Made by a program: the position numbers and the translations under genes. This document shows positions 28,098 through 47,800 of a stretch of 64,000 bases of DNA, in pieces (within the stretch, counting starts at the first letter, position 1; each line of letters begins with the position of its first letter). The DNA is taken from positions 5,469 to 69,468 of the forward strand of contig CAYTKR010000006.1 of the NCBI GenBank assembly GCA_964438295.1. The letters are read 5' to 3'. The notes below the pieces were generated by a model. That model was not told the DNA's origin and ran no database searches. It was given only the letters and a program-made list of their open reading frames with translations. This DNA is from an uncultured Anaerolineales bacterium (lineage in GTDB: Bacteria; Chloroflexota; Anaerolineae; Anaerolineales; UBA11858).

Positions 28098-28117
28098 CGA
28101 GACAAGGTGGAAATTTC

Positions 28118-29641
28118 ATGTACCATTTCGACTGGATCAAACGCCATGCAGAACGCACTCCTGACAAGATCGCCGTCGTGGATGCTCACACGGACAGGCA
28201 ATTCACATACGCCGAATTCAATCAACGGGCGAACTGCTTTGCGAGCTTTCTTGTTCAAGAATTGGGGGTCAACCAGGGGGATCGGGTAGCAATCCTGGCT
28301 GGAAACAGTTCCGACTACTATGAGATCCTGTTTGCCTGCGGGAAGATGGGTGCAATCCTTACGACGCTAAATTGGCGCTTGACTCCCCCTGAACTTGAAT
28401 ACATCCTCAACGACTGTTCGCCTCGCCTGCTAATCTACGAGCCAGAGTTTGCCGAAACCGTGGATAAACTGAGATCTCTAATCGAATGCGAATTCTATCT
28501 TGTGATGGCTGACGAAGCTTCTGAAGGCGAATGGACGTATGAAGATGCGTTGGCAGCTGGCTCACCTGTTGGTGTCGAAATGCCGGAATTGAAGTACACC
28601 GATACCTGGGCGATCTTGTACACTTCCGGCACTACCGGCCAACCTAAAGGTGCCCAGGTCACCTATGGCAACTTCTTCTACAACGCAGTGGGTATGGGTC
28701 AGGCCATCGATCTTTCATCGCAGGACGTCAATCTGAATGTGCTGCCCACATTTCATGCCGGAGGGCTGGGATTGTATGCCGGGCCAATATTCCATACTGG
28801 TGGTACCTTGATTGTGATGCGCGCCTTCGATCCTGAAAATTTCCTGCAGCTAATGGTGGAATGGAGCGTCACTGTCCTTCTTTTGGTGCCCTCGATATAC
28901 CTGATGCTGGCACAATACCCAGAATTTGACAAATATGATCTCTCGCATGTGCGCAGTTGGGCCAGCGGCGGCTCAACCTTGCCGCCCGCATTGGTACATG
29001 AATTCGCTGAAAAGAAAATCATCATCCAGCAAGGCTTTGGCATGACTGAAACCGGTCCAACGGTGTTCTTGATCGACGCCGAACATGCCACTGCAAAAGC
29101 AGGTTCCGTGGGCAAACCCGTCATCCACACGGAAGTCTGCATCAAGGATGAAAACGGAAATCTCTTGGGACCTGGTGAAGTCGGCGAACTTTGCATCAAA
29201 GGGGGTAACGTCACCACAGGATACTGGAACAGGCCCGAAGCTACAGGCGAAGCGATCGTCGACGGCTGGCTGCACTCTGGAGATGCCGCCAAATACGATC
29301 AAGATGGCTTTTACTACATCGTCGACAGGTGGAAGGACATGTTCATCTCTGGTGGTGAGAATGTGTATCCCGCCGAAGTGGAGAACGTGATCTATGAACA
29401 CCCCGCGGTCGCCGAAGTAGCTGTCATCGGGGTGCCCCACCCCAAATGGCAGGAAGTCGGCAAGGCCATCATGGCCATCAAGGAAGGCCACGAACTTTCC
29501 GATACAGAGATCATCGAGTTCTGCCAGGGCAAACTGGCCAAGTTCAAGATCCCCACGTCGGTTGCCTTCGTGGATTCGCTACCGCGCACTGCGGCTGGCA
29601 AGGTGCTCAAACGCGAGTTGAGAAAACAGTACACAAAGTGA
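28118..29641 (+). CDS. AMP-dependent acyl-CoA synthetase/ligase (2 of 3)
   Basis: TSGTTGQPKG, GFGMTE, WLHSGD, KDMFISGGENVYPAEVE, GKVLKR. Start at ATG 28118; the ORF-track extension to 27824 overlaps the DUF35 gene and is Arg-rich nonsense. Confidence 0.85.
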   Translation: MYHFDWIKRHAERTPDKIAVVDAHTDRQFTYAEFNQRANCFASFLVQELGVNQGDRVAILAGNSSDYYEILFACGKMGAILTTLNWRLTPPELEYILNDCSPRLLIYEPEFAETVDKLRSLIECEFYLVMADEASEGEWTYEDALAAGSPVGVEMPELKYTDTWAILYTSGTTGQPKGAQVTYGNFFYNAVGMGQAIDLSSQDVNLNVLPTFHAGGLGLYAGPIFHTGGTLIVMRAFDPENFLQLMVEWSVTVLLLVPSIYLMLAQYPEFDKYDLSHVRSWASGGSTLPPALVHEFAEKKIIIQQGFGMTETGPTVFLIDAEHATAKAGSVGKPVIHTEVCIKDENGNLLGPGEVGELCIKGGNVTTGYWNRPEATGEAIVDGWLHSGDAAKYDQDGFYYIVDRWKDMFISGGENVYPAEVENVIYEHPAVAEVAVIGVPHPKWQEVGKAIMAIKEGHELSDTEIIEFCQGKLAKFKIPTSVAFVDSLPRTAAGKVLKRELRKQYTK

Positions 29642-29721
29642 TTCGATTAGGAAGCCAGGAAACCATGAAATAGAAATTACTAACCGTTTTTCCCTGCGTT
29701 CCTGGTTTCCTCTCAAAATTT

Positions 29722-30402
29722 ATGGACGCATTCGAAGCTATCACCCAGCGACAAGGAGTTTTGCGCTTCAAGCCTGATCCTATAGAGCGCACATTGATCC
29801 AACAGATTTTGCAGGCTGCCACCGCTGCTCCCAGCCCGGCCAATACCCAGCCGTGGGAATTCGTCGTTGTAGATGATCCAACCAAGGCGCGGCAAATTGC
29901 CGAATACCTGGTTGTCACCCAGGCAGAATTCGTGTTCCGGCAATTATTAGGCACCCCAGAATCATTCATCGAACATTTGTTGACACTCTATGACCCGTTC
30001 TATAATGCCCCCTGTTTCATCATTCTTTGCCGACACCAGCGCACTTATTTAGCGCATAGCACACACAAGCATACTATCCGAGACTGGGACCTTTGCAGCA
30101 TTGGCGCGGCCATGGCCAACCTGATGGCAGCTGGGGTCGCAATGGGGTTGGGAACACGCTGGTTTGGGAACCCCATGATGGACCCTGAACCTCTCAAGTC
30201 AATGCTCGATATTCCAGATGATATTGAAATCATCGCAGTGACTCCTTTGGGTTTCCATGATGAGCAGCACAAAGAGCGTCCAACTCAACCCGTTGAAGCC
30301 CACACTGAATTCCAGCGCGGTGATAAATACAAACTGGCCGCGTTACTCCAGGGAAAGTTAGCACTTAAGGATGTAGTTCATTATAATAAGTTTGGAGGTT
30401 AG
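29722..30402 (+). CDS. Nitroreductase-family flavoprotein
   Basis: RFKPDPIERTLIQQILQAATAAPSPANTQPWEFVVV is the typical nitroreductase N-terminal block. Confidence 0.75.
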   Translation: MDAFEAITQRQGVLRFKPDPIERTLIQQILQAATAAPSPANTQPWEFVVVDDPTKARQIAEYLVVTQAEFVFRQLLGTPESFIEHLLTLYDPFYNAPCFIILCRHQRTYLAHSTHKHTIRDWDLCSIGAAMANLMAAGVAMGLGTRWFGNPMMDPEPLKSMLDIPDDIEIIAVTPLGFHDEQHKERPTQPVEAHTEFQRGDKYKLAALLQGKLALKDVVHYNKFGG

Positions 30403-30468
30403 ATTATGGAGATTGTAGCCGGGCAGCAATCCAAAATCATGTTTCAATCTTCCAACATCTAAACAAAT

Positions 30469-31335
30469 ATGAAAATCGGGCTGACTGCAACTTATAAGAA
30501 ATCTTTCACTCAGGAAGAATTCAACCGCTTTGCAGCACTCTCTGGCGATGACAATCCCATCCACATAGACCCGGAATTTTCAAAGCGCACAAAATTCGGG
30601 AACACCGTCGCCCATGGCATGTTGCTTTACAGCACTATCGGGCGCAGTTTGGGGGCCCTTCTGCCCGGCTCAGGCACACTTCAGATCTCTCAGGAATTGA
30701 TGTTCCCCAATCCAACTTTTGTGGGGCAAGAGGTCACGATCTATCTTGAAGTCACAGAACTTCCCACCCCCGAAACAGCGTTAATCAGAACGAACATCAT
30801 CCAACTCGATAAGACTTATGGCTGCCAGGGAGAAAGTCGAGTCTGGTTACCTGGCAGCATGCCATCGTTCGAACAAGTCAGCTACACCCCTCCAGACTAC
30901 CACGCTGAAGCACGCCAACATCGAGGGCTGAATATCGGTGACAGGATCTCGCAAACCAAAGAGTTTGGGTTGAATGAATTGAATGAGTTCTGTGAGTTAG
31001 TGTCTGAAGAGAACTCAGTTATTTTGGATAGTGTCTATGCGCAGTCAATCGGATTACATGGAACGCCACTCCCTGGCGGGTTATTGGGAGCAACTGTGTC
31101 CGACATCCTGGGGACGAAGCTTCCCGGCCGCGGCACCAACTGGCTAAAACAGAAATTCTATTTCCTAGCTCCCGCCTACCCAGGTGAAGAAATTACCACT
31201 TCGGTTGAGATCATCCGCCTGCGCCCAGAGAAGGATCTTGTCAACCTCAGAACTACCCTTACCAACACCGACGGCGAGATCGTACTCGATGGTGAAGCCC
31301 TGGTTTGGATCAGCGATTTGGAAATTGATCAATAG
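30469..31335 (+). CDS. MaoC-like (R)-specific enoyl-CoA hydratase, double hot-dog
   Basis: The first half carries the hydratase-2 motif FAALSGDDNPIHIDPEFS. The second half (about aa 150-288) is hot-dog-like but reads SEENSVILD at that position, so the motif is absent. Confidence 0.75.
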   Translation: MKIGLTATYKKSFTQEEFNRFAALSGDDNPIHIDPEFSKRTKFGNTVAHGMLLYSTIGRSLGALLPGSGTLQISQELMFPNPTFVGQEVTIYLEVTELPTPETALIRTNIIQLDKTYGCQGESRVWLPGSMPSFEQVSYTPPDYHAEARQHRGLNIGDRISQTKEFGLNELNEFCELVSEENSVILDSVYAQSIGLHGTPLPGGLLGATVSDILGTKLPGRGTNWLKQKFYFLAPAYPGEEITTSVEIIRLRPEKDLVNLRTTLTNTDGEIVLDGEALVWISDLEIDQ

Positions 31336-31381
31336 GAATATTGGAATGTAGAATACGTTGAATACGTCCAGAGGAAATTCT

Positions 31382-32179
31382 ATGTCCATAGCTAATGTCA
31401 ATAATGTAAACCTGTATTACGAACTCCACGGCCCCGAGAGCGCACCTGTACTAGTGCTCAACAATGGGTTGATCATGAGTGCCGCCACAAGTTGGATCTT
31501 CCAGACCGCTACCCTGTCGAAACATTACCGTCTGCTGCAATACGACTGCCGGGGACAGGGGCAATCCGACCATCCCCAGGATCCATACACTATGGAACTT
31601 CACGCAGACGACCTGGCTGCATTGCTCGAAAAATTACGCATTGACTATGCGCATATCGCTGGAATATCTTACGGCGGCGAGGTCGCCCAGGCTTTCGCGC
31701 TTAAATATCCCGCCAAAACCCGCAGCCTGATCCTGATCGACACCGTCAGCGAGGTGGGACCAGAACTGCGTCTGGTGATCGAGAGCTGGGTGGACATGCT
31801 CAAAGCACAGGATCCGCTGGGATTCTTCCATGCAACCGTCCCCTGGAATTTCTCTCCGGCTTGGATCGCGGCCAACACTCCAATCCTGGAAGATGCTAAA
31901 GAGCGCTATCAATCATTAGATTTCCCAGCTGTGGGCAACCTATGCGAAGCCTTCTTCGATGTTGATTTCACGCAGCGTCTCAGGAAGATCAAGGCACCAA
32001 CCTGCATCATGGCAGGCGAACTGGATCTGATCAAAGGTATTCCCTATGCCAAGATCCTTAAAGACGCCATTCCCCACGCTGAGCTGCATATCATCCCGGG
32101 AGCCGGGCATGCCTCATGCTGGGAGCGACCGGAGGAGTTCAACACAATAGTTCTCGGTTTTCTCGCCAAAATCGACTGA
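31382..32179 (+). CDS. Alpha/beta-fold hydrolase
   Basis: VLNNGLIMS, GISYGG nucleophile elbow, GAGHASCWERP. GAGGAAA precedes ATG 31382. Confidence 0.75.
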   Translation: MSIANVNNVNLYYELHGPESAPVLVLNNGLIMSAATSWIFQTATLSKHYRLLQYDCRGQGQSDHPQDPYTMELHADDLAALLEKLRIDYAHIAGISYGGEVAQAFALKYPAKTRSLILIDTVSEVGPELRLVIESWVDMLKAQDPLGFFHATVPWNFSPAWIAANTPILEDAKERYQSLDFPAVGNLCEAFFDVDFTQRLRKIKAPTCIMAGELDLIKGIPYAKILKDAIPHAELHIIPGAGHASCWERPEEFNTIVLGFLAKID

Positions 32180-32308
32180 TCTGTAACCGGCTAGAAACTC
32201 GGATATGCTAGTATGGACACAATTCAGGGGTACTTCTTTCTATTGGCATTTAATGTAGCAGTAAGTTCTTGCGTGATCGAGTAGCAGAGGAGATATTGGA
32301 GGACTCGT

Positions 32309-33835
32309 ATGCATGCAGCTGATCTGATGAGCAAACGGGCTGATTTAACTCCAGGCCGGGTCGCTCTAGTGGAACTAGAAACTGGTCAACGATTTACCTA
32401 TCACCAGTTGAATTCGCGTGCAAACCGTCTGGCAAATTTTATGCAGGATGTCCTCGGTGTCGGAAAAGGCGATCGGGTTTCCATTCTGGCCAAAAACAGC
32501 GTTACCTTTATTGATTTGTTCTACGGGCTACCAAAAATCGGGGCAATTTTCTCACCATTTAACTGGCGACTGACCCCCAGCGAGTTAACTTACATGGTCA
32601 ATGACCTGGAGCCCAAAGTATTGCTCTGCGAGCCAGAGTTCATTCCCAAGCTCGAAGAAATTTCTCCCAACATTGCGGTGGAGCATATTGTAACCTTGCG
32701 TGGTGCTGCACTTGATGATTCCCTGCCCCTCGAGGAGGGTCTCGAAAAAGCCTCCTCAGATGAGCCGCAAAGGCCGGCGCTCGATCGAGACAGCCCTTAT
32801 TGCATTTTATATACGTCAGGCACTACGGGCCACCCCAAAGGTGCTGTGATCCCTCACCGCCAAATTCTTTATAACTGCTTGAACACCGTCGCAAGTTGGG
32901 GATTAACCGAACATGATATATCTCCAGTTTATACTCCACTCTTTCATGCTGGAGGATTATTTGCCTTCTTGACCCCCCTGCTCTACTTGGGGGGACGCAT
33001 TATCCTAGCACGCGATTTTGATCCGGCGGTGTCCATGCAATGGATTCTGGAGGAGGGCTGCACCGTGATCTTGGGTGTGCCAACGCTCTTCCAAATGTGG
33101 ATGGATTCCGACTACTTCGCTGAGGCCGACTTCAGTCACGTGCACTTTTTTATCAGTGGGGGCGCGCCCTGTCCACCAAAACTGATGCAGGCCTGGCGTG
33201 AGAAGAAAGGTATCATATTCCGGCAAGGGTATGGCCTCACTGAAGTAGGCCCCAACTGCTTCAGCATGACGGACGAGGACTCGGTTCCAAAAACAGGTTC
33301 GGTGGGCAAGCCCATCTTCCATAGCAAGATGCGCATTGTCGACCCTCTGACAGGGGATGATGTTTCCGATGGAGAAGCGGGCGAATTGCTAATTTGGGGT
33401 CCGCACGTCTGCTCGGGCTATTGGCGCAACCCCGAGGCCACAGCAGAAACCATCAAAGGTGGCTGGTTCCACACGGGAGACATAGTTCACAAAGATGACG
33501 ATGGTTTCTTCTACATCGATGGCCGCTACAAAGATATGATCAAGAGCGGCGGTGAAAACATCTATGCTGCCGAGGTGGAGGCGGTCTACAAGAAACATCC
33601 CGCGATCAAGGATGCTGCCCTGATTGGAAAAGCCCATGAGAAATGGGGCGAAGTCGGTCTGATGGTCATGATCACAGAGGAAGGCCAGCAAGTTACCGAA
33701 GGTGAATTGATGGCCTTTGCCCTCAACAGCCTGGCAAAATTCAAGATCCCCAAACAAGTCATTTTTGCCGACAATCTGCCTTACACTGCGTACGGCAAGG
33801 TCGAGAAAGCTAAATTGAGGGAGATGTATTTATGA
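32309..33835 (+). CDS. AMP-dependent acyl-CoA synthetase/ligase (3 of 3)
   Basis: TSGTTGHPKG, GYGLTE, WFHTGD, KDMIKSGGENIYAAEVE. GGAGG RBS. Confidence 0.85.
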   Translation: MHAADLMSKRADLTPGRVALVELETGQRFTYHQLNSRANRLANFMQDVLGVGKGDRVSILAKNSVTFIDLFYGLPKIGAIFSPFNWRLTPSELTYMVNDLEPKVLLCEPEFIPKLEEISPNIAVEHIVTLRGAALDDSLPLEEGLEKASSDEPQRPALDRDSPYCILYTSGTTGHPKGAVIPHRQILYNCLNTVASWGLTEHDISPVYTPLFHAGGLFAFLTPLLYLGGRIILARDFDPAVSMQWILEEGCTVILGVPTLFQMWMDSDYFAEADFSHVHFFISGGAPCPPKLMQAWREKKGIIFRQGYGLTEVGPNCFSMTDEDSVPKTGSVGKPIFHSKMRIVDPLTGDDVSDGEAGELLIWGPHVCSGYWRNPEATAETIKGGWFHTGDIVHKDDDGFFYIDGRYKDMIKSGGENIYAAEVEAVYKKHPAIKDAALIGKAHEKWGEVGLMVMITEEGQQVTEGELMAFALNSLAKFKIPKQVIFADNLPYTAYGKVEKAKLREMYL

Positions 33836-33842
33836 ACTCTAT

Positions 33843-33930
33843 TTGTCATTGCGAGTCACCGCAGGTGGCGATGCAATCCAAATCAACACATGGAGATTGC
33901 TTCGTCGGCGCTGCTTTCTCGCAATGACAA
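33843..33930. repeat. Palindromic intergenic element, GTCATTGCGAG subfamily (inverted relative to 20261..20345)
   Basis: ttgtcattgcgag...ggcgatgcaatcc...ggagattgcttcgtcggcg...ctcgcaatgacaa. It starts 8 nt after the ligase stop. Confidence 0.75.
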
Positions 33931-33966
33931 AATTAGTAACCACATTGACCGTTTTTAGGAGTACAC

Positions 33967-35028
33967 ATGTCAATACCAACAAGTGAAGGCGTGACTGCCA
34001 AAACTGTCACCACAAAGCGCATTACAACCCGGGTCCTTTTTTCTGGAGCAGAGGACGGCACCCCCGTGCTCTTCCTGCACGGCAATGTGTCTTCAGCGAC
34101 ATGGTGGGAAGAAATGCTTGTCAGCTTACCAAGGGGTTGCCGAGGTATTGCGCCCGATCAGCGCGGATTTGGCGAAGCTGATTCCGGAGCCAAAGTCGAT
34201 GCTACGCGTGGCATGGAAGATTTCGCTCACGACGCATTCGCGCTGCTCGACCTCCTGGGATACGATAAAGCCCATATTGTCGGCAACTCATTGGGGGGTA
34301 TGGTGGTATGGCGCATGCTAATGATAGCCCCAGAGCGTTTCCTAAGCGTTACCCTGGCAGACCCTGGCTCACCCTTTGGATTCGGTGCCACACGCGATGC
34401 CGATGGAACACCCACAACGCCCGATTTCGCTGGCTCGGGGGGTGGACTGTCGAACCCTGAGCTGATCAAACGCATGGGCGAGGGTGACATGTCCACCGAA
34501 AGCGATTTTTCACCCCGTTCAGCGCTGCGAGCATTACTGGTCAAACCACCCTTCATCTCGGCGCGCGAGGATGAACTGGTGAAGGCGATGAACTCCACCC
34601 ATCTCGGGGAGCAAGATATCCCTGGGGATTCCGAGCAATCAGCGAACTGGCCCCACATGGCACCTGGCAAATGGGGCGCAACTAACGCCACATCGCCAAA
34701 ATACGCGGGTGATGTGCAGAACATCATCTCATGTGACCCCAAACCGAAAATCCTATGGATCCGTGGCAGCCATGACCTGGTGGTTTCCGATACAGCTGCG
34801 TCGGACCCAGGTTTCTTGGGTCGTATGGGACTGCTGCCGGGCTGGCCAGGAGAAGAGGATTACCCTCCCCAGCCGATGATCGCACAAACTCGCCAAATTC
34901 TTGAGCGGTACGCCGCGGCAGGAGGCACTTACAAAGAAGTCGTCATTGACGATACCGGGCATGTTCCATTCATTGAAAAGCCGGATGAGTTTAATACATT
35001 TTTTCATCCTCACATAAATAACGGTTGA
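33967..35028 (+). CDS. Alpha/beta-fold hydrolase (larger, 353 aa)
   Basis: VLFLHGNVSS, GNSLGG nucleophile elbow, DDTGHVPFIEKP. A lid-like insertion lies between them. Confidence 0.75.
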   Translation: MSIPTSEGVTAKTVTTKRITTRVLFSGAEDGTPVLFLHGNVSSATWWEEMLVSLPRGCRGIAPDQRGFGEADSGAKVDATRGMEDFAHDAFALLDLLGYDKAHIVGNSLGGMVVWRMLMIAPERFLSVTLADPGSPFGFGATRDADGTPTTPDFAGSGGGLSNPELIKRMGEGDMSTESDFSPRSALRALLVKPPFISAREDELVKAMNSTHLGEQDIPGDSEQSANWPHMAPGKWGATNATSPKYAGDVQNIISCDPKPKILWIRGSHDLVVSDTAASDPGFLGRMGLLPGWPGEEDYPPQPMIAQTRQILERYAAAGGTYKEVVIDDTGHVPFIEKPDEFNTFFHPHINNG

Positions 35029-35238
35029 GGCGATCATTTAGAGGATGTGAAAATTGATTTGGAGATACCTATTGTCATTCTGATTGACTAGAACGAAAAT
35101 ACACAAGGAATTAGATTATCAGACTACTGAAAGGAGGTGGTGCCCGGCGACTTGATATTGGAAAACGACAATCCAAAACCATTCCACTAACATAGCTACT
35201 ATACGAATCTTAACTGATCGATCAAGGAGAGAAGAAAT

Positions 35239-36546
35239 ATGTCTAAACGTTTATTCCACATGTTCATGTTGATTGTCATTCTCGTGCCGATGCTCATGAT
35301 TGTTCAACCCGCGATGGCAGATTCACATGGTGTATCATGCGACGAGCCCATCAAGGTTGGTCTGATCACCGATGCCACCGGCGCCCTGGCCATCTACGGT
35401 GCGCACATCATCCGCAGCTTTATGCTGGGTATGGAATACGCGACTGGCGCAGCTGGCAGCGTTGGCGACGTATTCACCGTTGAAGACGGCAGCAATACTT
35501 TCATGTTGGGCGACTGTGAGATCGAGGTGCTACTTGGCGATGACCAGACAAATCCCGATCTAACCACCTCAGTAGCCCGCGAATTCATCGAGGTCGATGA
35601 AGTCGATGTCTTGGTTGGTACGGTAAGCTCTGGAAACACCGCAACGCTTCAAGAGATTGCCGCAGAAAACGAAACCATCCTCATCGTAGCACCCGCAGCA
35701 GCCAACGATATCACTGGCGTAGGCTTCAATGAATACACATTCCGCACCAGCCGCGAGAACTACCAAGATGCCATGGCGTTGTGCGAATATGTCACTCAAG
35801 AATACGACACTTTCGTACAGATTGCTCCGGACTACAGCTTTGGCTGGGGCGGTGCTGCAGCTTATCGGGATGCCTGCACAATGTATGGAGGTACATTCCC
35901 AGTTGATGACATCTTTGCTCCCTTCGACACAACCGATTTCACTCCTTACATGGAGCAACTCCTAGACTCCGGCGCGCAGGCCTGGATCCCAACCTGGGCA
36001 GGTGGCGGATTCATCGCCATCATGCAAGCAGCGCTAGACCTAGGTGTGGTCGCTGAAATGGCCATGGCAGCATCCTTTGTTGACAACGTGGCACTGCCCG
36101 CCTTCTTTGGCAATTCCATTGGTTCGACTGGTTCGATCCTGTACCATTACTCAGCACCCGACAATGAGATCAACGATTGGCTGGTTGAAGAGACTAAGGA
36201 ACGCTATGGCGTTTACCCCGACCTTTTCGATGGCGATGGCGCCAATGCAGCCATCTTGCTTGTGGAAGCCCTCAAGGTCACAGGTGGCGTGACCGGCGCC
36301 CCTGAAATGATCGCTGCGATGGAAGGTATGGAGTTCGAAGGACCCAAAGGCACTGTCTACATCCGTCCTGAGGATCATGTTGCCATTCAGGATATGTATG
36401 TTATGACACTGCTCAACGTGGACGATCCTGATGCCATGTTCTTTGAGTACATCACCACGACAACTCCCGAACCGCCTTGCCTGTTACCGGAAGAGCTTAA
36501 AGACCGCTGCGGCGACCTGCCTTACGGCAGCTTGACCGGAGAATAA
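35239..36546 (+). CDS. Secreted LIV-type (Peripla_BP_6) ABC transporter substrate-binding protein
   Basis: Signal peptide MSKRLFHMFMLIVILVPMLMIVQPAMADS, then IKVGLITDATGALAIYG... typical of the LivJ/LivK family. AAGGAGAG RBS. Confidence 0.8.
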   Translation: MSKRLFHMFMLIVILVPMLMIVQPAMADSHGVSCDEPIKVGLITDATGALAIYGAHIIRSFMLGMEYATGAAGSVGDVFTVEDGSNTFMLGDCEIEVLLGDDQTNPDLTTSVAREFIEVDEVDVLVGTVSSGNTATLQEIAAENETILIVAPAAANDITGVGFNEYTFRTSRENYQDAMALCEYVTQEYDTFVQIAPDYSFGWGGAAAYRDACTMYGGTFPVDDIFAPFDTTDFTPYMEQLLDSGAQAWIPTWAGGGFIAIMQAALDLGVVAEMAMAASFVDNVALPAFFGNSIGSTGSILYHYSAPDNEINDWLVEETKERYGVYPDLFDGDGANAAILLVEALKVTGGVTGAPEMIAAMEGMEFEGPKGTVYIRPEDHVAIQDMYVMTLLNVDDPDAMFFEYITTTTPEPPCLLPEELKDRCGDLPYGSLTGE

Positions 36547-36630
36547 ACTTTAAATTGAAATCCAAGCGTCGGGGAGCTCTCGAGTAGACTCCCCGACACA
36601 CCCTATCGCACATTGAAAACTTCTATAATA

Positions 36631-36674
36631 AAAGGGGTGGATGGCGTGCGATGCTCGCCATCCACCCTTTTTAT
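36631..36674 (+). terminator. Intrinsic terminator after the binding-protein gene
   Basis: ggggtggatggcg (36634-36646), 9-nt loop, cgccatccaccc (36656-36667), then tttttatt. Confidence 0.75.
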
Positions 36675-36709
36675 TCCGAATTGCATGCATTAGGTCAGGA
36701 GGAAGACTT

Positions 36710-38650
36710 ATGCCTGAGAGCTTTTTCTCAAAATTAAAAGACCAGGCGTCTGGCCATACACCCATCAAAATTGGCGTTATCACCACCCAAACAGGTCCGT
36801 TGGATTATTATGGCACCATGCAGGTCCGTGGCCTGAAATTGGGGATCGAATATGCGACTGAAGGATCAGGGATAGTTTCAGGGCGATCTATCAAGTTGAT
36901 TATCGAGGATGATGCCGGCGACGCAGCAACAGGTGGCCGCAAGGCGCGCGAATTAATTCGACAACAGGGTGTCGACATACTCCAAGGTGGAGTATCGAGT
37001 GCCACCGCAATCATCTTGACGAGAGTCGCTGAGGAATATGGTCGCATCCTGCTGGTAGAACCGGCTGCTGCCGACAGCATTACGGGCGAAAACTGGAACA
37101 AGTTTGTTTTTCGTACGGCCGCCAGCGTCAGTCAAGATGCCGTCGCAGGAGGCCAATATGCAGTCGAAAACCTGGGCAAGACTTTCTGCTACATTGCTCC
37201 CGACTACGCCTTTGGGCATCAGAGCACAGCTGCCTGGCGCAAAATCATCGAACAGCATGGTGGAAAGGCTCTCATAGAAGTCTACCCTCCTGCAGATACA
37301 ACCGATTTCACTCCCTATCTACAAGAACTCTTGGAGAGCGGTGCTGATGTTTTGGTACAATCATGGGCAGGGGCTGGATACGGTGAGCTCTTCAGCCAGA
37401 TGCGCGATCTGGGGGTCTTCGAGAATATGAAGGTCACCGGCGGGTTGGGTGATCGTGAAGCCCGTCACACCTTAGGAACTGACGCCGTTGGGATGGTCGG
37501 TATTTGCAAGTACTCGTATGTGCTTCCAGACAATCCCATCAACAACTGGCTGACGGATAAACATATCGAAGAATACGGAGAAGCGCCTGACCTCTTTACT
37601 GGTGGCGGTTTCTCTGCGGGCGTCGCCCTGGTAGAAGCGCTAAAGCGCACTGCTGGCAACCCCAAACCCGAAGCCATGATACCCGTTATGGAAGGGATGA
37701 GCTTCGAAGGCCCAAAAGGCACGTATAGTTTCAGGAGGGAAGACCATCAGGCTTTACAGCCGATGTACGTGGTCGAGATGGTCAAAGACCCTGACAATCC
37801 CTGGGCTGTCCCGAAGCTGATCCAAGAGATACATTCACAGGAGACGGCACCGCCGTTATTAGAATTGATCTTCGAAGCAGACGACAACATAGTAGAAACC
37901 AAACAATTACGCAAAGAGTTTGGAGCATTGGTGGCAGTTGCCAATGTCAACATCAAAGTGCAACCTAACACAATCCACTCGATTATTGGGCCAAACGGCG
38001 CTGGTAAGACAACTTTCTTCAACCTGTTATCAGGAAACTTGCCACCCAGCCAGGGACGAGTATTCTATAAGGGTCGCGATATCACCCACCTCCCCCTCCA
38101 CCGCACAGCCCACCTGGGGATTGGGCGATCCTTCCAAATCACAAATATTTTCCCCAGCCTGACAGTTCTAGAAAACATCCGGCTTGCCTGCCAAGCGCTA
38201 GGACGCGGCAACTTCCGCTTTATGCGCTCCCATAAACACTTCAAAGAGTTCGAAGAACGTTCTTGGGAAGTGATCCGCCAAGTGGGACTAGAAAAAGAAG
38301 CCTTGCTGCCAGCGCGCACTTTGCCCCATGGTGGGCAACGAAAGCTGGAATTGGGCATCATCTTAGCTGCGGACCCCGAGGTACTCTTGCTCGATGAGCC
38401 TACTGCAGGCATGGCAGCCGAACAGGTTCCGGAATTGATCGAGTTGATCCGCGAGGTTCAAAGAGCTGGACAGAAAACCGTTATGCTGGTCGAGCACAAC
38501 ATGAACGTCGTGATGAGCATCTCCGACTACATCACAGTGATGCACCAGGGTCAGGTGCTTGCGGAAGGAACTCCAGCGGAAATCGCTACCAACGAGGTCG
38601 TACAGAGCGCTTACCTGGGTCAATTGTACGGCGATCTCCAGGTGAGTTAG
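36710..38650 (+). CDS. Fusion protein: signal-less LIV-type binding-protein paralog (N, ~400 aa) + LivG-type ABC ATPase (C, ~245 aa)
   Basis: One uninterrupted frame. The N-part is colinear with the 35239 protein (IKIGVITTQTGPLDYYG..., DTTDFTPYLQELLESGADV, MEGMSFEGPKGTYSFRREDHQALQPMYVV) but starts MPESFFSKLKDQASG with no hydrophobic leader. The C-part has GPNGAGKTT, the Q-loop, LPHGGQRKLELG and LLLDEP. AGGAGG precedes ATG 36710. Confidence 0.8.
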   Translation: MPESFFSKLKDQASGHTPIKIGVITTQTGPLDYYGTMQVRGLKLGIEYATEGSGIVSGRSIKLIIEDDAGDAATGGRKARELIRQQGVDILQGGVSSATAIILTRVAEEYGRILLVEPAAADSITGENWNKFVFRTAASVSQDAVAGGQYAVENLGKTFCYIAPDYAFGHQSTAAWRKIIEQHGGKALIEVYPPADTTDFTPYLQELLESGADVLVQSWAGAGYGELFSQMRDLGVFENMKVTGGLGDREARHTLGTDAVGMVGICKYSYVLPDNPINNWLTDKHIEEYGEAPDLFTGGGFSAGVALVEALKRTAGNPKPEAMIPVMEGMSFEGPKGTYSFRREDHQALQPMYVVEMVKDPDNPWAVPKLIQEIHSQETAPPLLELIFEADDNIVETKQLRKEFGALVAVANVNIKVQPNTIHSIIGPNGAGKTTFFNLLSGNLPPSQGRVFYKGRDITHLPLHRTAHLGIGRSFQITNIFPSLTVLENIRLACQALGRGNFRFMRSHKHFKEFEERSWEVIRQVGLEKEALLPARTLPHGGQRKLELGIILAADPEVLLLDEPTAGMAAEQVPELIELIREVQRAGQKTVMLVEHNMNVVMSISDYITVMHQGQVLAEGTPAEIATNEVVQSAYLGQLYGDLQVS

Positions 38651-38655
38651 GAGGC

Positions 38656-39372
38656 ATGGACATGGAAAACAACTCCCTCCTTAAAGTCAACGACATTCAC
38701 ACCTTCATTGGTCAGTTCCATATCTTACAGGGTGTCACCGTCGAGGTACCTAAAGGAAAAATTGTAGCCCTACTTGGCCGGAACGGCGCTGGCAAAACTA
38801 CGACGCTCAAATCGGTATTGGGATTGACGCCCCCGAATAAAGGTCAGATCATCCTCGCTGGCGATGAGATCCAGGGACGGCGCAGCTACGACATCGCCGA
38901 TATGGGCATCGGTTTTGTCCCCGAACACCGCGCAATATTCCGAGATTTGAGCGTACTGGAAAATTTGCGCATCGCCGAACGCAAGAAGGGTGACCTGGAG
39001 AAGAAAGAGGAGTTCATCTTCTCTTTGTTCCCAGACTTGAAACGCTTGATCAAGCTGCCTGGAACGAATCTCTCGGGTGGGCAGCAGCAAATGCTGGCAG
39101 TGGCCCGTGCGCTGGTGCCTGAAAATAAACTGCTCCTGATCGATGAGCCCAGCGAAGGGCTAGCCCCAGTGATTATCGAACAGATGATGGATGCAATCCG
39201 CCAACTTTCCGCAGAAACGACCGTATTGCTCGTAGAGCAGAACTTCATAGTCGCCAGTCAGCTAGCGGAAAGCTATGTGATCATCGAAGAGGGCCACTCC
39301 GTAAAATCAGGCAAAATGGCTGATTTGGTTGATGACCCCGAAACCATCCGTCGCTACCTCGAAGCTGCTTAG
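38656..39372 (+). CDS. LivF-type ABC transporter ATP-binding protein
   Basis: GRNGAGKTT, LSGGQQQMLAVARAL, LLIDEP, and the GFVPEHRAIF block typical of LivF. Confidence 0.85.
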   Translation: MDMENNSLLKVNDIHTFIGQFHILQGVTVEVPKGKIVALLGRNGAGKTTTLKSVLGLTPPNKGQIILAGDEIQGRRSYDIADMGIGFVPEHRAIFRDLSVLENLRIAERKKGDLEKKEEFIFSLFPDLKRLIKLPGTNLSGGQQQMLAVARALVPENKLLLIDEPSEGLAPVIIEQMMDAIRQLSAETTVLLVEQNFIVASQLAESYVIIEEGHSVKSGKMADLVDDPETIRRYLEAA

Positions 39373-39397
39373 CAGCATAAAGGAGAAGGATAATTCT

Positions 39398-41002
39398 ATG
39401 AATTCACTCTTGACGTCCTTCCGAAGAAATCGCACATTCTGGATCACTCTACTCGTCCTGATCGTCATCTTTGCGTTTGCCGTCCGGGGCATGGTAAATG
39501 AAGATGCCGAAGGCGGAGAGCGATATAAGAATGTCGTCATTACACTATTGAGAGGCTTTTCGACAGGCTCGATCATATTCCTGGTTGCATCAGGATTCTC
39601 GATCATCTTTGGGCTGATGAGCGTACTCAACATGGCTCACGGAGCTTTGTTCATGATCGGGGCTTACGTGGGCTGGACAGTCGCCGTTCGCCCAGATACC
39701 GCTGTAGACGCGATTACGCCGATCGCATTATTAATCTCAGGATTCTTGTTGTCACCTGTTTGGGATCAAATCCTTAACAAGCTGAAATTCTCACCTGGAA
39801 TCAAAAGATTATGGCCTTGGCTGGGACTGATATTGGCATTACTTGTTTTGGCCTTCACCCTTCCTAAATATCCCATCACCAATTGGGATGTAGGATCTTA
39901 CGAGATCAGCCCGGTCAACTATGCCTTTGCGGCGAGCCAGGGGCAGGTGGTTGTGCCTGAACCCAAACAGTTCGAGGGGATCTCGCCCTTGCTCGGAGTG
40001 GGCGGAATTCTAATTGGCAGTATATTGGCTGGCATAACCGTTACGGGATTTGCGGCAAATCGCCGCCCCGCAACGGCTGGAGCCGCGCCAGAACAAGGAT
40101 CCATCAGGAAATCGATAATCAATTTTGTCATTGTCGCTTTGCTGGGTCTGCTGATTTACATCTTCAACACACCCATTTCTAATTTCTTGTTTACTCTAGA
40201 TAGCACTTGGCTATTTATCTTAGCCATTTTAGTGGCAGTCGCCACAGGCGCAGGCTTGGGGGTTTTGATCGAATCGACGCTGATCCGGCCAATCTATGAG
40301 TCCCACATATATGTGCTGATGCTCACCTTGGGCGTAAATGCCATCATCATCGAATTGGTGCGCACCATTTGGGGCGCCCCTGAATTCACTATGCACCGGC
40401 CCTCCATCTTTGCAGGAACCGGCGAAGGCTGCCCGGCAGAGAGTTTAGGAGCCTTGCTGGAATACAAGTGCTCGACCATACGCGTATTGGGCGGTAGGGT
40501 GCGAACCTACAACGAGATCTTCATTACAGTCTTAGGCTTTGTTGTCCTGATTGCCGTATGGCTGCTGCTACAGCGCACGCGCCTGGGCATGATCGTGAGA
40601 GCTGGCGTGCAAGATAGTGAAATGGTCGAGGCCTTGGGGATCAACGTCCAGAGGATCTTTACGATTGTTTTCGCTTTAGGCGTTGGACTGGCTGCTTTAG
40701 GAGGAGTGATCGGCGCACCATCCACCGGGCTAACAACTACCTTGGGAGACAGTCTTTTGATCAATATACTAGTGGCCTTGGCGATCGGTGGTCTCACCAG
40801 TTATCCTGGTGCGGCTGCAGGCGCGTTGATCGTAGGACTCTTGCAACAATTCATCATCAAATATGGGCAAATCGGCATCAACATTCCCTTCATGGAAGAG
40901 CCTTTCAAGCCCTCTCCCCCCCTCGTGCCAGCCATGACTGTACTGCTGATGGTCATCATACTGATGGTCATGCCACAGGGTTTGTTTGGCAGGAAGGAGT
41001 GA
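39398..41002 (+). CDS. LivH-type branched-chain-amino-acid-family ABC permease with a large internal insertion
   Basis: Conserved blocks NMAHGALFMIGAYVGW and RTRLGMIVRAGVQDSEMVEALGINV are about 310 aa apart. The protein is 534 aa, whereas LivH permeases are usually about 300 aa. Confidence 0.75.
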   Translation: MNSLLTSFRRNRTFWITLLVLIVIFAFAVRGMVNEDAEGGERYKNVVITLLRGFSTGSIIFLVASGFSIIFGLMSVLNMAHGALFMIGAYVGWTVAVRPDTAVDAITPIALLISGFLLSPVWDQILNKLKFSPGIKRLWPWLGLILALLVLAFTLPKYPITNWDVGSYEISPVNYAFAASQGQVVVPEPKQFEGISPLLGVGGILIGSILAGITVTGFAANRRPATAGAAPEQGSIRKSIINFVIVALLGLLIYIFNTPISNFLFTLDSTWLFILAILVAVATGAGLGVLIESTLIRPIYESHIYVLMLTLGVNAIIIELVRTIWGAPEFTMHRPSIFAGTGEGCPAESLGALLEYKCSTIRVLGGRVRTYNEIFITVLGFVVLIAVWLLLQRTRLGMIVRAGVQDSEMVEALGINVQRIFTIVFALGVGLAALGGVIGAPSTGLTTTLGDSLLINILVALAIGGLTSYPGAAAGALIVGLLQQFIIKYGQIGINIPFMEEPFKPSPPLVPAMTVLLMVIILMVMPQGLFGRKE

Positions 41003-41005
41003 TCC

Positions 41006-42070
41006 ATGGAAACAACCCGTCAAAACTCCTTTGCGAATATCTTGAGATCAAACCGGGGTGTGATTATCACCATCCTGTTGTTGATGGCACTCCCCTTCAT
41101 TATCGCTCTGGCCAACGGGCAACCCTTCAGCAGCCTGCTAGCCAATGAGCCCGGCCAATCGAAGTTCTATCAGGGACTTGTGATTGAGATCTTCATTTTG
41201 GCAATCTATGCCCTGAGCTATGACTTGCTCTTGGGGATCACCGGACTGCTCTCTTTCGGCCACGCCATGTTCTTTGGGGTGGGCGCCTACCTGACTGGCA
41301 TCATGCTAAAAAGCTTTGGCTGGTCCTTGCTGCCAATTTTAGGATTGGTCGCTGTCGCAGGCGTGATAATGGCGTTGATCTTCAGCATTGTCTTGCCGCG
41401 CGTCAGAGGGATCACCTTTGCCCTGGTGACCCTGGGCATCGCCCAGGTTTTTTACATCGTGATCCAATCACGTGAATTAGTGGACTACGCCGGCGCTGAA
41501 ATCGGCTTGCAAGGAGTCACACCCCCGGACTTCATCAACCCCATATCCCAGCGCCTTCGTTTCTACTACATTGGGTTGATTGCCGTTTTTGTGGTGTACT
41601 TCATCTTCAAGCGCTTCGTGGACTCACCCACAGGGCACGTTTGCGTTGCCATCCGGGAGAATGAAGACCGTGCCACCATGCTAGGCTACAACACCTTCTA
41701 CTTCAAGTTGGTGGCGCTGATCCTTTCTGGGATCGTGGCTGCGCTGGCTGGCGCCATGCATGGCCTTTTCAGTCCCATTATCCGGCCTGGAATCGCTAGC
41801 TCCCATTACACCATCGCTGTCCTACTAATGATCCTGATGGGCGGCATCGGCACATTGGATGGCGCGCTTATCGGCGCAGCCACTTTCCGACTGCTCTCCT
41901 TCTGGCTGGAAAAGTGGTTCGGAGGCGCCTCGCAAGTAATCATCGGGGTGGTGTATATCTTGTTGGTGCTCTTCCTGCCCTATGGAATTGTGGGAACCTG
42001 GAAACTACGTGGATACAAGCTTAAACAAGGCTGGGCTGATCTGATCGTAAGATTTACCCAGCAAAATTAA
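41006..42070 (+). CDS. LivM-type ABC permease
   Basis: GLLSFGHAMFFGVGAY, VAIRENEDRATMLGYN, GGIGTLDGALIGA. Confidence 0.85.
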   Translation: METTRQNSFANILRSNRGVIITILLLMALPFIIALANGQPFSSLLANEPGQSKFYQGLVIEIFILAIYALSYDLLLGITGLLSFGHAMFFGVGAYLTGIMLKSFGWSLLPILGLVAVAGVIMALIFSIVLPRVRGITFALVTLGIAQVFYIVIQSRELVDYAGAEIGLQGVTPPDFINPISQRLRFYYIGLIAVFVVYFIFKRFVDSPTGHVCVAIRENEDRATMLGYNTFYFKLVALILSGIVAALAGAMHGLFSPIIRPGIASSHYTIAVLLMILMGGIGTLDGALIGAATFRLLSFWLEKWFGGASQVIIGVVYILLVLFLPYGIVGTWKLRGYKLKQGWADLIVRFTQQN

Positions 42071-42093
42071 CCCAATTTTGGGAAATTGAGATT

Positions 42094-42137
42094 AACAGGA
42101 GCGTTGGCGCTTTGCGCTAACGCTCCTGTTATTTCTT
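42094..42137 (+). terminator. Intrinsic terminator ending the ABC transporter operon
   Basis: aacaggagcgttggcgc-ttt-gcgctaacgctcctgtt followed by atttctt. Confidence 0.75.
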
Positions 42138-42186: not shown

Positions 42187-43527
42187 ATGAGCAAAATTTC
42201 CCATGTCATCAAACGCAGTGGAACCCTGGTCCCCTTCGTGCCCGAACGGATCACAAACGCCATTTATCGTGCTGCGGTATCGGTTGGCGGCAGGGACAAA
42301 AAGATTGCCGAAAACCTGGGCAGGGAAGTTGTTAAGCTGCTCGAAGCCAATTGCCAACCCGGCCAACATCCTCACATTGAGGAGATCCAAGACCTGGTAG
42401 AAAAAATTCTCATCGAAAATGGGCACGCCAAAGTTGCCAAGCATTATATCCTCTACCGTGATGAGCGTGCCCGCCGGCGCGCCGAAAGCGCCGACCGCCG
42501 CTCGAAGCCTTCAGGGAACATCCCCTGGGCCAAGATCTGGTATGTGTTGAATTGGGCGGCCGACCACAAAGTCAATACCATCGAAAATCTAAACAACCGC
42601 ATTGCATCTGATGAATTCCCCGCCGTCGTCAATGAATCTGAAATCGCTTACCTGGTAGATGTTGAGAATGCAACCGAGCAAGTCGCCGGGCGAGGCGAGG
42701 AAGTAAGGATGGTGGTGATTACCGGTCCCTCATCCTCGGGCAAAACAACGACCACGATCAAGCTCTCCCATGGCCTGGAGAAACGAGGCTATAACCTGGT
42801 TACGCTGAACGTGGATAATTATTTCTTCAACCTGGAGATGCATCCCAAAGACGAATTTGGGGATTACGATTTCGAGACTCCCCAAGCGCTCGACCTACCA
42901 TTGATCAACGAGCACCTTGAGAAGCTCATAGCCGGCGAAGAGGTAATGATTCCATTCTATGATTTCAAAACGGGGCAGCGTCATGATGCGGTCACTCCCA
43001 TGAAACTTGCTCCGAAAGAAATCATTTTGATCGATAGCCTGCATGGGCTCTTCCCCGATATGACCCAAGCCATCCCATCGGAGCAGAAATTCTTCCTTTA
43101 CCTGGAACCTCTGCTCCAGATGAAAGACCGCAACGGAGATTATGTCCGCTGGACAGATATCAGGCTAATCCGACGCATGCTACGGGATGCCGCGCATAGG
43201 GCGTATGACCCCAGGAAAACTTTACTGCACTGGCATTATGTTCGCGCTAGCGAGATGCGCAACATCATCCCTTATATCAACACCGCCGACTACCTCATCA
43301 ACACCGGAATGCCTTATGAGTTACCGCTCTATTGCCATAAACTGCTGGATAGTTTTTCGGAATGGACGCGCGAACTTCAGGGTGATCCCCTGCGAGAGGA
43401 CGCGCTTAGGCGCGCCGAACGCGTCTATGAGGTATTATGCCAAGTTACCCCCGTTGCGGATGATTCTGCTGTTCCGGTCGATTCTGTGCTGCGAGAATTT
43501 ATTGGCGGCAGCGTGTATGAGTATTAA
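42187..43527 (+). CDS. ATP-cone domain fused to a uridine-kinase/PRK-like P-loop kinase
   Basis: The N-terminal ~95 aa match the ATP-cone pattern (VIKRSGTLVPFVPERITNAIYRA...HIEEIQDLVEKILIENGHAKVAKHYILYRDER). Then come P-loop ITGPSSSGKTTT and IDSLHGL. Confidence 0.7.
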   Translation: MSKISHVIKRSGTLVPFVPERITNAIYRAAVSVGGRDKKIAENLGREVVKLLEANCQPGQHPHIEEIQDLVEKILIENGHAKVAKHYILYRDERARRRAESADRRSKPSGNIPWAKIWYVLNWAADHKVNTIENLNNRIASDEFPAVVNESEIAYLVDVENATEQVAGRGEEVRMVVITGPSSSGKTTTTIKLSHGLEKRGYNLVTLNVDNYFFNLEMHPKDEFGDYDFETPQALDLPLINEHLEKLIAGEEVMIPFYDFKTGQRHDAVTPMKLAPKEIILIDSLHGLFPDMTQAIPSEQKFFLYLEPLLQMKDRNGDYVRWTDIRLIRRMLRDAAHRAYDPRKTLLHWHYVRASEMRNIIPYINTADYLINTGMPYELPLYCHKLLDSFSEWTRELQGDPLREDALRRAERVYEVLCQVTPVADDSAVPVDSVLREFIGGSVYEY

Positions 43528-44838: not shown

Positions 44839-47800
44839 CTACGCTGCACAAACGCGATTCTTGCCAGCGCGCTTGGCTTCTAAAACCCCCGCATCTGCGG
44901 CAAGCAACAGTCCTTTGGGTGATTGGGCATCATTGGGGACCGATGCAACACCGATGCTAAGTGTATAACCCGAGATCGATCCATCTGATTTCTGCATGGC
45001 TTTCGTTTTGGGCATTAAATCAAGGGCTTTGGATTCGGCGGCTATTCTGATTCGTTCTGCCAAATAACAAGCGCCCTCCTTACCCGTATGTGGTAAAAGC
45101 AACACGAATTCCTCACCCCCATAGCGGGCGACCATATCAGGGAGACGAACATTCCTCTGAAGAATTTCAGCAATTTCTCGCAACTGTACATCGCCAGCTG
45201 GATGGCCGTAGGTATCGTTGAAGATCTTGAAATCATCGATATCCATGAAAATCAATGATAGTGGGTGTCCATAACGCGTAGCGCGCACAACTTCGCTTTC
45301 CAATGCTGCATCGAACGCACGCCGGTTGGCAACCTGGGTCAAGCTGTCTGTAACAGCGAGTTTTTGCACTTTGGAATACAGTTGAGCATTCTCGATGGCT
45401 ACGGTCACCTGGGAGGCTGCGATAGTCAGGAGATGTTCGTCACGAGTTGTGAACGAGTTGGGCTTGTCGCTATCGATGGACAACGCGCCGATAATGCTAT
45501 CCTTGGCCTTCAATGGAACGACCATCAGCGAACGCACTTCCCGGCTAAAAAACTTGAAATTGGGATCGGCATACGTATCGGGAACGTATCGTGGCTGCCC
45601 AGTTTCTACAACTTTCCCACTGACACCTTCGCCAACCATCAAGGAGAACTCTCGCACCCACTGAGGCGCCACTCCGGCAGTGGCACCTAATGAAAGCATC
45701 TGGGTTTTCGGGTCGAGGAGCACGATGGTTGCGGCTCTCGCCGAGAGCATATCCCTGAGGTTCTCGACAATGGTTACGAGAACCTCGTCAGTCTCCAAAC
45801 TAGAGGTGGTCTTTTGAGCCAGATCATATAACGCTGACATTTCATAAAGATTTCGCTCTAATTCCGTCGCGTAATCAGCATTTTCCAAAGCAATCGCAAT
45901 CTGGCTCGCTAACGTTTCTAAGAGCCTACAATGACTCAAGTCATACATATTGGGTTGAAACGACTGTACAGATATCGCACCCAGCACCTGGTCGTGCGCT
46001 ACCAATGGCACCCCCATCCAAGAGCGGGATGGCCTTCCACTGTGTTTTGGCTCAATAGGCAGCGAATCGGTTTCAATATCTTTGATAATTAGATGGTGTC
46101 GATTCTGAATCACCCAGCCGGTTAAGCCTCCATCTCCCAAAGCAAACTTTGCCCCAATCCATTCAGGAAGTTTTTGATTTTCCTCGATTGCCAATAATAC
46201 TTGCAAATGGTCATCATCAAGATCATATCGTACAACCGCAAAAGAATCCGGCGAAAACAGTTTTTCAACCTGGTTGTAAATTCGATCCAAAAGAATATCA
46301 ACCTCTAAAACACTGCTGGTATCCAAAGTTGCATCAAAGACGGCCCCCAATTCCTGCATCTGACGTTGAGTTTCTTCAAAGAGACGTGTGCTTTGAATTG
46401 CAATTCCGGCTTGCCGACCGACTGATTCAACCAGAAGAAGATCACGTTCGGAGAATTGGTTCTCAGGAGATAAACTCATTAACCCTAATGCTCCGATGGC
46501 ATTTTCTCCACTGCAGATCGGAACCCCTACCACATTAATAACTCCAGCTTCAACCCATTCGGCAATTGCTTCGGGATACTCAGAATAGTTTTTTAGAAGA
46601 ACTGAATCTCCCGAACGAATCACTTTGTGTGTAACACCTAATGGATCAGGTAGTGGCTGCTCACTCAGGCTCGATGGCAAATTATACAAGTAGGGAAAAC
46701 GTACCGTCTCTCCATCAGAATCCAATAAAGCCAAGGCGCCTGCGTCCGCCCCGATGAGCTCGGCTGTCAGGCGCACGACATCTCGGAGCATTGTCGGAAA
46801 ATCTAATCCGCTGCTAAGCGAACGAGCGATATCAGTCAATTGTTTTTCGCGATCCAAACTTTGATTGATTTCAACCAACAAACGGGCGTTTTCCAAAGCA
46901 ACCGCCGCCTGGTTTGCAAACAAGGATAAGAGCTCCAATTCTTCTTGCGTGAACTTTCGATCTTCGACGTTATCCAATATATGTAATACACCGGTCACAT
47001 TGCCATGCCAGATTATTGGCACGCTGATCACCGCTGTAAATTGGCTATCACTATAAACTGCCGCCCGGTTTGAGTAATTCTGGTAATCATTGATAATCAT
47101 GGGTTCGCCCGACTCAGCCACAACCCCTGCCACCCCTTCGCCATATTTGAGAACGATCCCGGTGTAATCGGAGGGCGCTTGATAACAAACCATGCAGTGA
47201 ACTTCTTTTTTTTCTGCTTCACACATGTACAATCCGCCCGAAGGGGCAGCCAATAATTGAGCCGCACTCTCGACGATCTTTTCGAACAACTTATCCAAAT
47301 CTCCCGGCATGGTCATATCCAGTGAGATCGAATGGATTGCGGATAGTTCATCCATACGGCGCAGCAGTGATTCCTCTGATCGGACCAATTCATTTTCCAG
47401 CCTGCCGTAACCGCCAAAAAGCATGTCAACAGAGCTGCGCCTGGCAATACGTCGAAAGTCCGGCAAAGCGGATACACAGCGGTAGAGATAAACTGATGCC
47501 AATGGCCATAGCAATATCCCCGAGACTGTTTTCCCAAATAGCTGTTCGTGAAGTATGTTGGCAAAGTTAGGAGTGCCAGCATACGTTAGCAAAGAAAAGA
47601 GCAACGCATCAACCCATAGAGCGCCATTAAATGCCGCGAGTGTCGCCAACCAGATCGGCACGCGGCTTTTTGGTGGAGCGTCCCATATCATGAAGCGATC
47701 GCTGAGTCCAAACCGATTGATGACGAATTGAAAGAAGATCGCCATTGCATACAAATCAATCAAGAAGGTGATCATCGAAGCAGCCATTTTTCGCGTAGCG

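Follow-up and report, generated by a model that had tools for sequence, protein, structure and literature searches.

In the 64,000-nucleotide stretch of DNA from an uncultured Anaerolineales bacterium analysed here (contig CAYTKR010000006.1; hereafter the window), one gene of an ATP-binding cassette (ABC) importer operon joins a binding-protein-like domain to a LivG-type ATPase. Judged by its sequence, this domain, which we named cSBD (cytoplasmic binding-protein-like domain), is a signal-less, cytoplasmic paralogue of the transporter's own binding protein, placed on the N-terminus of LivG. The fusion is genuine and under purifying selection, because the available assemblies concur, many clusters and species carry the architecture and the ratio of nonsynonymous to synonymous substitution rates (dN/dS) is low. 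By analogy with other importers, we lean slightly towards cSBD being a sensor that sits asymmetrically on one ATPase and gates the importer in response to an intracellular ligand.

The gene is one continuous open reading frame (ORF) of 646 amino acids on the + strand, running from the ATG at 36710 to the TAG at 38648-38650, and both the ORF call and Pfam bore out the in-frame fusion that the initial annotation had placed at 36710-38650. Pfam assigned Peripla_BP_6 to residues 18-359 (E 1e-73), ABC_tran to residues 411-566 (E 3e-26) and the LivG-specific C-terminal motif BCA_ABC_TP_C to residues 615-637, where the protein ends. Alignments and AlphaFold showed that the protein begins with 17 residues (36710..36760) of the conserved pattern M-x-x-S-F-L-x-R-L, which are predicted to form a short helix and no signal peptide. 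They are followed by cSBD (residues 18-382; 36761..37855), as delimited by Pfam, AlphaFold, dN/dS and the alignment with the secreted substrate-binding protein (pSBP) encoded upstream, and then by a variable linker of about 13 residues, LLELIFEADDNI (residues 383-394; 37856..37891), with a low predicted local distance difference test score (pLDDT). The LivG-type nucleotide-binding domain occupies residues 395-646 and, with the stop codon, positions 37892..38650, as defined by ABC_tran, BCA_ABC_TP_C and the motif positions. Its motifs are intact: Walker A GPNGAGKT (427-434), signature HGGQRK (540-545), Walker B LLLDEPT (559-565) and H-loop LVEHNM (593-598). The junction (37841-37924) reads ...ETAPP(378-382) LLELIFEADDNI VETKQLRKEFG..., and the peptide across it is ...ETAPPLLELIFEADDNIVETK.... 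Colinearity with pSBP, initially described for the first ~400 amino acids, was found for residues 1-~385, with 40% identity over 389 amino acids (E 1e-84).

The pSBP gene (35239..36546, +) encodes 435 amino acids with Peripla_BP_6 at residues 37-391 (Pfam, E 6e-56), and its translation starts with a hydrophobic N-terminal leader, MSKRLFHMFMLIVILVPMLMIVQPAMA. Hydrophobic or lipoprotein-type leaders also start about 70 homologues, unlike the fusion, whose N-terminus (MPESFFSKLKDQASGHTPIKIGV... / MPESFFSKLKDQASGH...) has only 17 hydrophilic residues ahead of the first beta-strand and no hydrophobic stretch. The absence of a signal peptide, as already proposed in the initial annotation, was judged by our own hydropathy heuristic. 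A recent duplication of the adjacent binding-protein gene was considered and is unlikely, as the two share just 40% identity while cSBD shares 50% with P0122, a secreted protein encoded elsewhere.

The junction was the same, with neither indel nor stop codon, in Logan contigs of four runs from three marine studies, which are independently assembled contigs and not raw reads; the missed stop or frameshift that had initially been envisaged at this point did not appear in any of them. A search of 5.8 billion proteins yielded more than 80 clusters (at the 90% identity level) of 640-650 residues with the same domains and 64-91% identity, the named members of which were Anaerolineae or Anaerolineales from metagenomes. 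Among the GTDB species representatives, of which 8-10 show the full-length architecture, the fused gene was present at loci L002-L008, partial at contig ends in L011 and L079, and frameshift-ridden in L009. Pairwise dN/dS was 0.06-0.07 for cSBD, at dS ~1.5, against which the ATPase had 0.01-0.02. Evolution was faster in the linker and in the 17 N-terminal residues, the linker dN reaching 0.7-1.2 in distant comparisons. That the fused gene arose as an artefact of assembly or sequencing, or is a copy of the binding-protein gene in decay, might be suspected in a window from metagenomic assemblies when a related locus such as L009 is riddled with frameshifts. This explanation is effectively excluded by the agreement of assemblies from three studies, the occurrence of the architecture in many samples and species, the low dN/dS of cSBD and the existence of split forms (see below) that are signal-less as well. 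In L009 (5182-10634; a long-read metagenome-assembled genome, MAG), the secreted and the fused genes were both split into several ORFs, which looks like sequencing-error frameshifts and not like pseudogenes. Two other fused proteins, each of 642 amino acids, showed peculiarities. P0084 follows the family to about residue 500 and then has a different LivG-type C-terminal half (64% identity overall), being either a recombinant or a chimeric assembly, and P0015 lacks four Walker B residues (LLDE) in the alignment, which points to an inactive ATPase or to an error in the sequence.

The same signal-less domain, with the same N-terminal motif, was also found as a separate protein of ~390 amino acids in a sister set of at least 20 clusters, in which it ends a few residues past ...EETAPP. 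At locus L001, the stop codon of the split cSBD overlaps the livG start by 4 bases (ATGA) and the remaining operon is unchanged; this overlap indicates that the split cSBD is translationally coupled to livG. The counterpart of the fused linker in L001 is an N-terminal extension on the stand-alone LivG. Orthologues were found fused or split, and the split ones were signal-less, which departs from the alternative raised in the initial annotation that the two parts would always be encoded separately with a signal peptide on the first. As these natural split orthologues show that the parts can function as separate polypeptides, the fused gene might also give two proteins in vivo, from an internal start (the TTG at 37865-37867 or another codon) or by cleavage, and the fusion as such would then be insignificant. 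We regard this as very unlikely, given that more than 80 diverged clusters preserve the unbroken frame and that a signal-less domain would still need explaining even if split. In addition, no Shine-Dalgarno-like sequence precedes the TTG, and nothing was found in support of the stand-alone LivG that had been predicted from it.

In about 70 other related loci, livG comes immediately after a lipoprotein-type binding protein, and a cytoplasmic copy is missing. In a neighbour-joining tree of LivG and LivH, which is rough and carries no support values and with which similarity scores agree, the loci devoid of cSBD nested among those bearing it: L010 and L013 adjoined the group of the window and L017 adjoined L006. 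These three loci, the closest by LivG and LivH, keep the whole transporter and lack cSBD. A homologue of the secreted binding protein was found directly upstream in all 7 cSBD loci with an available upstream flank (L002, L004-L008 and L011). Because close relatives keep the transporter without cSBD and the secreted receptor persists upstream, cSBD is an accessory module, dispensable for transport itself and no substitute for the external receptor. Several relatives carry a tandem double secreted binding protein of ~880 amino acids with two full Peripla_BP_6 copies (L006 1601-4315; L008 5304-7928; L014, L017, L027 and L032; proteins P0100 and P0121).

The transporter belongs to the HAAT family (LivFGHM-J / UrtABCDE-like), since Pfam identified a LivG-type ATPase with BCA_ABC_TP_C, a LivF-type ATPase, two BPD_transp_2 permeases and a secreted Peripla_BP_6 protein. 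The top NCBIfam model was Urt for all five components, each of which scored under its equivalog cut-off (UrtD, 224 vs 304; UrtE, 223 vs 286; UrtB, 154 vs 250; UrtC, 115 vs 296; UrtA, 39 vs 493), and an identity as the urea transporter UrtABCDE was rejected on these scores. For the ATPase domain of the fusion, UrtD and LivG were the top NCBIfam models, each under its cut-off. A branched-chain amino-acid system with LivJ/LivK specificity was rejected as well, the LivJ residues that hold the substrate groups being replaced: at the positions of Thr102 and Glu226, the cSBD family has Ala and Gly and the secreted family has Ala and Ala/Ser/Thr, respectively. The NCBIfam LivJ/G/H/M scores were also far under the cut-offs. 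With the residues that hold the carboxylate and amino groups in LivJ missing from both families, a branched-chain amino acid is an improbable substrate. The importer probably takes up an organic acid, which the acyl-CoA ligase encoded nearby would then activate, because acyl-CoA ligase and alpha/beta hydrolases sit upstream in most related loci. In the window, NCBIfam identified the acyl-CoA ligase at 32309-33835 (+), upstream of the transporter, and the alpha/beta hydrolase at 33967-35028 (+), directly upstream of the pSBP gene. Most of the 81 related loci have homologues of these enzymes ahead of the transporter genes, cSBD present or not, and the synteny with this transporter subfamily spans Chloroflexota and Acidimicrobiia MAGs. 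Such recurrent synteny suggests a conserved uptake-plus-activation pathway for an organic acid or ester. MaoC-like hydratase and nitroreductase-like genes often join the ligase and hydrolase upstream (28000-35028 in the window; flanks of most of the loci L005-L081).

We then considered the ligand site. Pocket positions were mapped with Escherichia coli LivJ, taken from the MG1655 record, and the residue list of PMC6983066. Within the cSBD family, all 13 LivJ pocket positions showed no or almost no variation, and 11 of them held the same residue as the secreted family (Y34, V95, S96, S97, P118, A119-121, F168, A220 and F296). The 2 differing positions fall in the loop TGGLGDREARH (243-253), which is invariant in the cSBD family. 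Glu226/Gly227 had been added to the LivJ list as presumed pocket residues. The ligand site of cSBD looks functional and related to that of the secreted protein, and it may bind the substrate itself or something derived from the substrate in the cytoplasm.

A first AlphaFold model, built from 32 sequences (pLDDT 69.7), matched LivJ-like binding proteins, with 3N0X/RPA4397 as the top PDB match (template-modelling score 0.82, target-normalised). With an alignment of 115 sequences the mean pLDDT was 81.1, mostly 80-97 in cSBD and acceptable in the ATPase; it fell below 50 at linker residues 385-391 and was low in a helix at residues 4-13. RPA4397 from Rhodopseudomonas palustris (3N0X / 3NND) was the closest solved structure to both cSBD (E 8e-72, 37% identity) and pSBP (E 8e-54) and is, unlike cSBD, a secreted stand-alone periplasmic protein of a Liv-like transporter. 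As a route to the substrate, 3N0X/3NND gave no ligand in the structure title, and no paper on them was found. AmiC, from the amidase operon of Pseudomonas aeruginosa, also matched cSBD by sequence (E 2e-13, N-lobe) and by fold. Like cSBD, AmiC is signal-less, cytoplasmic and LivJ-like in fold, and it senses a small molecule. It is a free protein that controls transcription by sequestering the antiterminator AmiR, whereas cSBD is joined to an ABC ATPase by fusion or by translational coupling. No match to AmiR (ANTAR) or an amidase partner was obtained among the ten neighbouring proteins at 29722-42070 (NCBIfam; Pfam on the five transporter proteins).

A comparable arrangement is known from NrtC and CmpC of the cyanobacterial nitrate (NrtABCD) and bicarbonate (CmpABCD) ABC importers, each an ATPase carrying one domain ~30% identical to its own binding protein (NrtC vs NrtA). 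In CmpC the ligand-free domain locks both ATPases and nitrate releases the lock; in NrtC the domain is mainly a docking platform that recruits PII, which binds domain and ATPase, and mutation of the nitrate site left regulation unchanged. In both systems, deletion of the domain deregulates transport, for which it is dispensable (PMC10945777, PMC13287603). Like NrtC and CmpC, cSBD-LivG has a single binding-protein-like cytoplasmic domain on one of two non-identical ATPases, the partner being bare, which makes the complex asymmetric. The two arrangements differ in family and fold (NitT/TauT with an NrtA-like fold there; HAAT with a Peripla_BP_6 / LivJ-like fold here, for which Pfam also gave Peripla_BP_5) and in position, the domain being C-terminal via a hinge helix in NrtC/CmpC and N-terminal via the low-confidence linker loop in cSBD-LivG. 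The natural split and absent variants of the cSBD system are a further difference. cSBD-LivG is probably convergent with NrtC/CmpC. The design principle is already known from these proteins, and what is new here is the HAAT family, the LivJ-like Peripla_BP_6 fold and the N-terminal position; literature searches found no paper on a binding-protein domain fused to a LivG-type ATPase.

The initial annotation had compared the domain with the trans-inhibition domains of MetN, ModC and MalK. Its idea of an intracellular sensor is plausible; it had overlooked the NrtC/CmpC precedent, which operates without classical trans-inhibition by the transported substrate. The MetN (C2/NIL), ModC and MalK (TOBE-like) domains are likewise extra cytoplasmic domains of ATPases, and they make ATPase activity respond to the binding of a ligand or partner inside the cell. 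All are small, C-terminal and of unrelated folds, and they stand symmetrically on both identical ATPases and act by dimerising, in contrast to the single 365-residue, N-terminal binding-protein fold on one of two different ATPases. Pfam found no NIL, TOBE or MalK regulatory domain in either ATPase of the window. GlnPQ and OpuA resemble cSBD-LivG in that a receptor fold is covalently joined to the transporter, to the permease in their case and to the ATPase in ours; their domains are extracellular and deliver substrate, whereas cSBD, on a cytoplasmic ATPase, cannot reach the outside.

The accessory distribution, the strong purifying selection and the conserved pocket positions make the role of cSBD as a sensor plausible. 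In such a model, cSBD would be held by a short flexible linker at the N-terminus of LivG in a LivFGHM/Urt-like importer, the bare LivF making the complex asymmetric, and would bind a cytoplasmic small molecule, namely the imported compound or something closely derived from it. Opening and closing of cSBD would alter its contact with the ATPase dimer, and this change would match ATP hydrolysis and import to the pool inside the cell. We infer the ligand binding, the ATPase contact and the direction of the effect, which could be inhibition of the MetN/ModC type or relief of auto-inhibition of the CmpC type; since NrtC and CmpC differ, neither the sign of the regulation nor the ligand is readable from the architecture alone. 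Several observations weigh against a sensor. The predicted template-modelling score of the AlphaFold model was 0.62, with no confident cSBD-ATPase contact or relative placement. No RNA run was found to contain the sequence. The role of NrtC as a PII platform and not as a substrate sensor weakens the analogy as a guide to the mechanism of cSBD. Moreover, 71 residues were invariant in the cSBD family and different in the secreted family, including D32, Y33, Q171, R249, R252, K267, T297 and F301; because many of them adjoin pocket positions, the ligand of cSBD need not equal the transported substrate. Finally, P0125 (L082 523-1698), a signal-less protein of 391 amino acids that is 43% identical to cSBD, lies between an AMP-binding (acyl-CoA ligase) gene on one side and a 103-amino-acid unknown gene followed by an alpha/beta hydrolase on the other, and the short contigs that carry it have no ABC gene. 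P0125 may be an unattached relative in the cytoplasm that works independently of the transporter, which hints at a role of this kind for the domain itself.

The NrtC-PII precedent also raises the possibility that cSBD is a docking platform that recruits another regulatory protein to the ATPase, its own ligand site being secondary or vestigial. Many cSBD-specific invariant residues, including the TGGLGDREARH loop, are candidates for such a surface. We consider this reading unlikely, as the operon holds no conserved candidate partner gene and an invariant pocket is unexpected for a vestigial site.

The location of P0125 between an AMP-binding enzyme and a hydrolase, and not beside an ATPase, is also what would be expected if cSBD were a cytoplasmic acceptor that captures the substrate at the permease exit and hands it to the acyl-CoA ligase without regulating the pump. 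By keeping the free concentration of a membrane-permeant or toxic organic acid low, an acceptor would make uptake effectively irreversible. The pocket positions common to the secreted protein and cSBD, the link of acyl-CoA ligase and hydrolases to the transporter across the subfamily and the short tether that holds cSBD at the cytoplasmic face all speak for it. A 1:1 tethered binder, however, has a very small buffering capacity, close relatives do without cSBD, and the ligand is unlikely to be identical, given how many residues around the pocket are specific to cSBD. To our knowledge, substrate hand-off by a cytoplasmic binder has not been described for any ABC importer, and we consider an acceptor rather unlikely, if worth keeping in mind. 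A vectorial relay with binding proteins on both membrane faces, in which cSBD would pass the substrate from the permease exit to the co-encoded acyl-CoA ligase, seems distinctly improbable; we know of no ABC transporter that works as a two-faced relay.

Should cSBD be a sensor, then a receptor has been duplicated, has lost its export signal and has been attached to one ATPase at least twice, in unrelated ABC importer families. A receptor-derived internal sensor would then be a general design rule and not a cyanobacterial curiosity, and the fused, split and absent variants of one transporter would be a natural test set for communication between domain and ATPase. The database name of the fused proteins is "ABC transporter substrate-binding protein", a name that conceals the ATPase and would lead metabolic reconstructions of marine Anaerolineae astray.

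Other fusions of a binding protein with an ATPase were not seen among the best 150 matches in a representative library of 1.84 billion proteins, which is a weak negative; the ten multi-domain library matches that were scanned were permease-ATPase(-ATPase) or ATPase-ATPase fusions. No full-length match to the fused family of the query came from this library of 50%-identity representatives (top score 469 bits), so that architecture-based negatives from it are unreliable. The query family must be represented there by a single-domain protein or be missing.

The region between the pSBP gene and the fusion (36545-36725) folded with -69.4 kcal/mol (z = -6.1). RNA folding located a first hairpin at 36568..36597 (+) and, at 36630..36675 (+), a terminator-like hairpin of 13 G+C-rich pairs (arms 36634-36646 / 36656-36667) followed by TTTTTATT, which a pattern scan for terminators had missed. 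The latter hairpin may lower the expression of the membrane and ATPase genes relative to the pSBP gene. The Shine-Dalgarno sequence AGGAGG (36697..36702, +) lies 7 nt ahead of the ATG. The separation of the two genes by a terminator-like hairpin and a strong ribosome-binding site, as initially described, was confirmed, and the conclusion that the fusion is not a read-through artefact of the binding-protein gene held.

Downstream of the fusion, the + strand encodes a LivF/UrtE-type second ATPase with no extra domain (38656..39372; Pfam, NCBIfam), a LivH/UrtB-type permease of 534 amino acids (39398..41002) and a LivM/UrtC-type permease (41006..42070; Pfam, NCBIfam), and the pattern scan found a terminator-like hairpin of 18 pairs followed by a T-run at the operon end (42093..42131, +). 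In LivH, Pfam detected BPD_transp_2 in two stretches, between which lies an insertion of ~170 residues. The long LivH is kept in most related loci, with or without cSBD, and a smaller group has a normal LivH of ~330 amino acids. The insertion was considered as a cSBD-specific docking site and rejected, being equally present in relatives without cSBD. Beyond the operon, by eye, a 446-amino-acid ORF (42187-43527, +) shows an N-terminus resembling an ATP-cone (MSKISHVIKRSGTLVPFVPERI...) and, after it, a kinase-like region with a P-loop (GPSSSGKTT), and a 1121-amino-acid ORF (44839-48204, -) has a multi-pass membrane region at its N-terminus, several GAF-like repeats and the GGEEF motif of diguanylate cyclases at its C-terminus.

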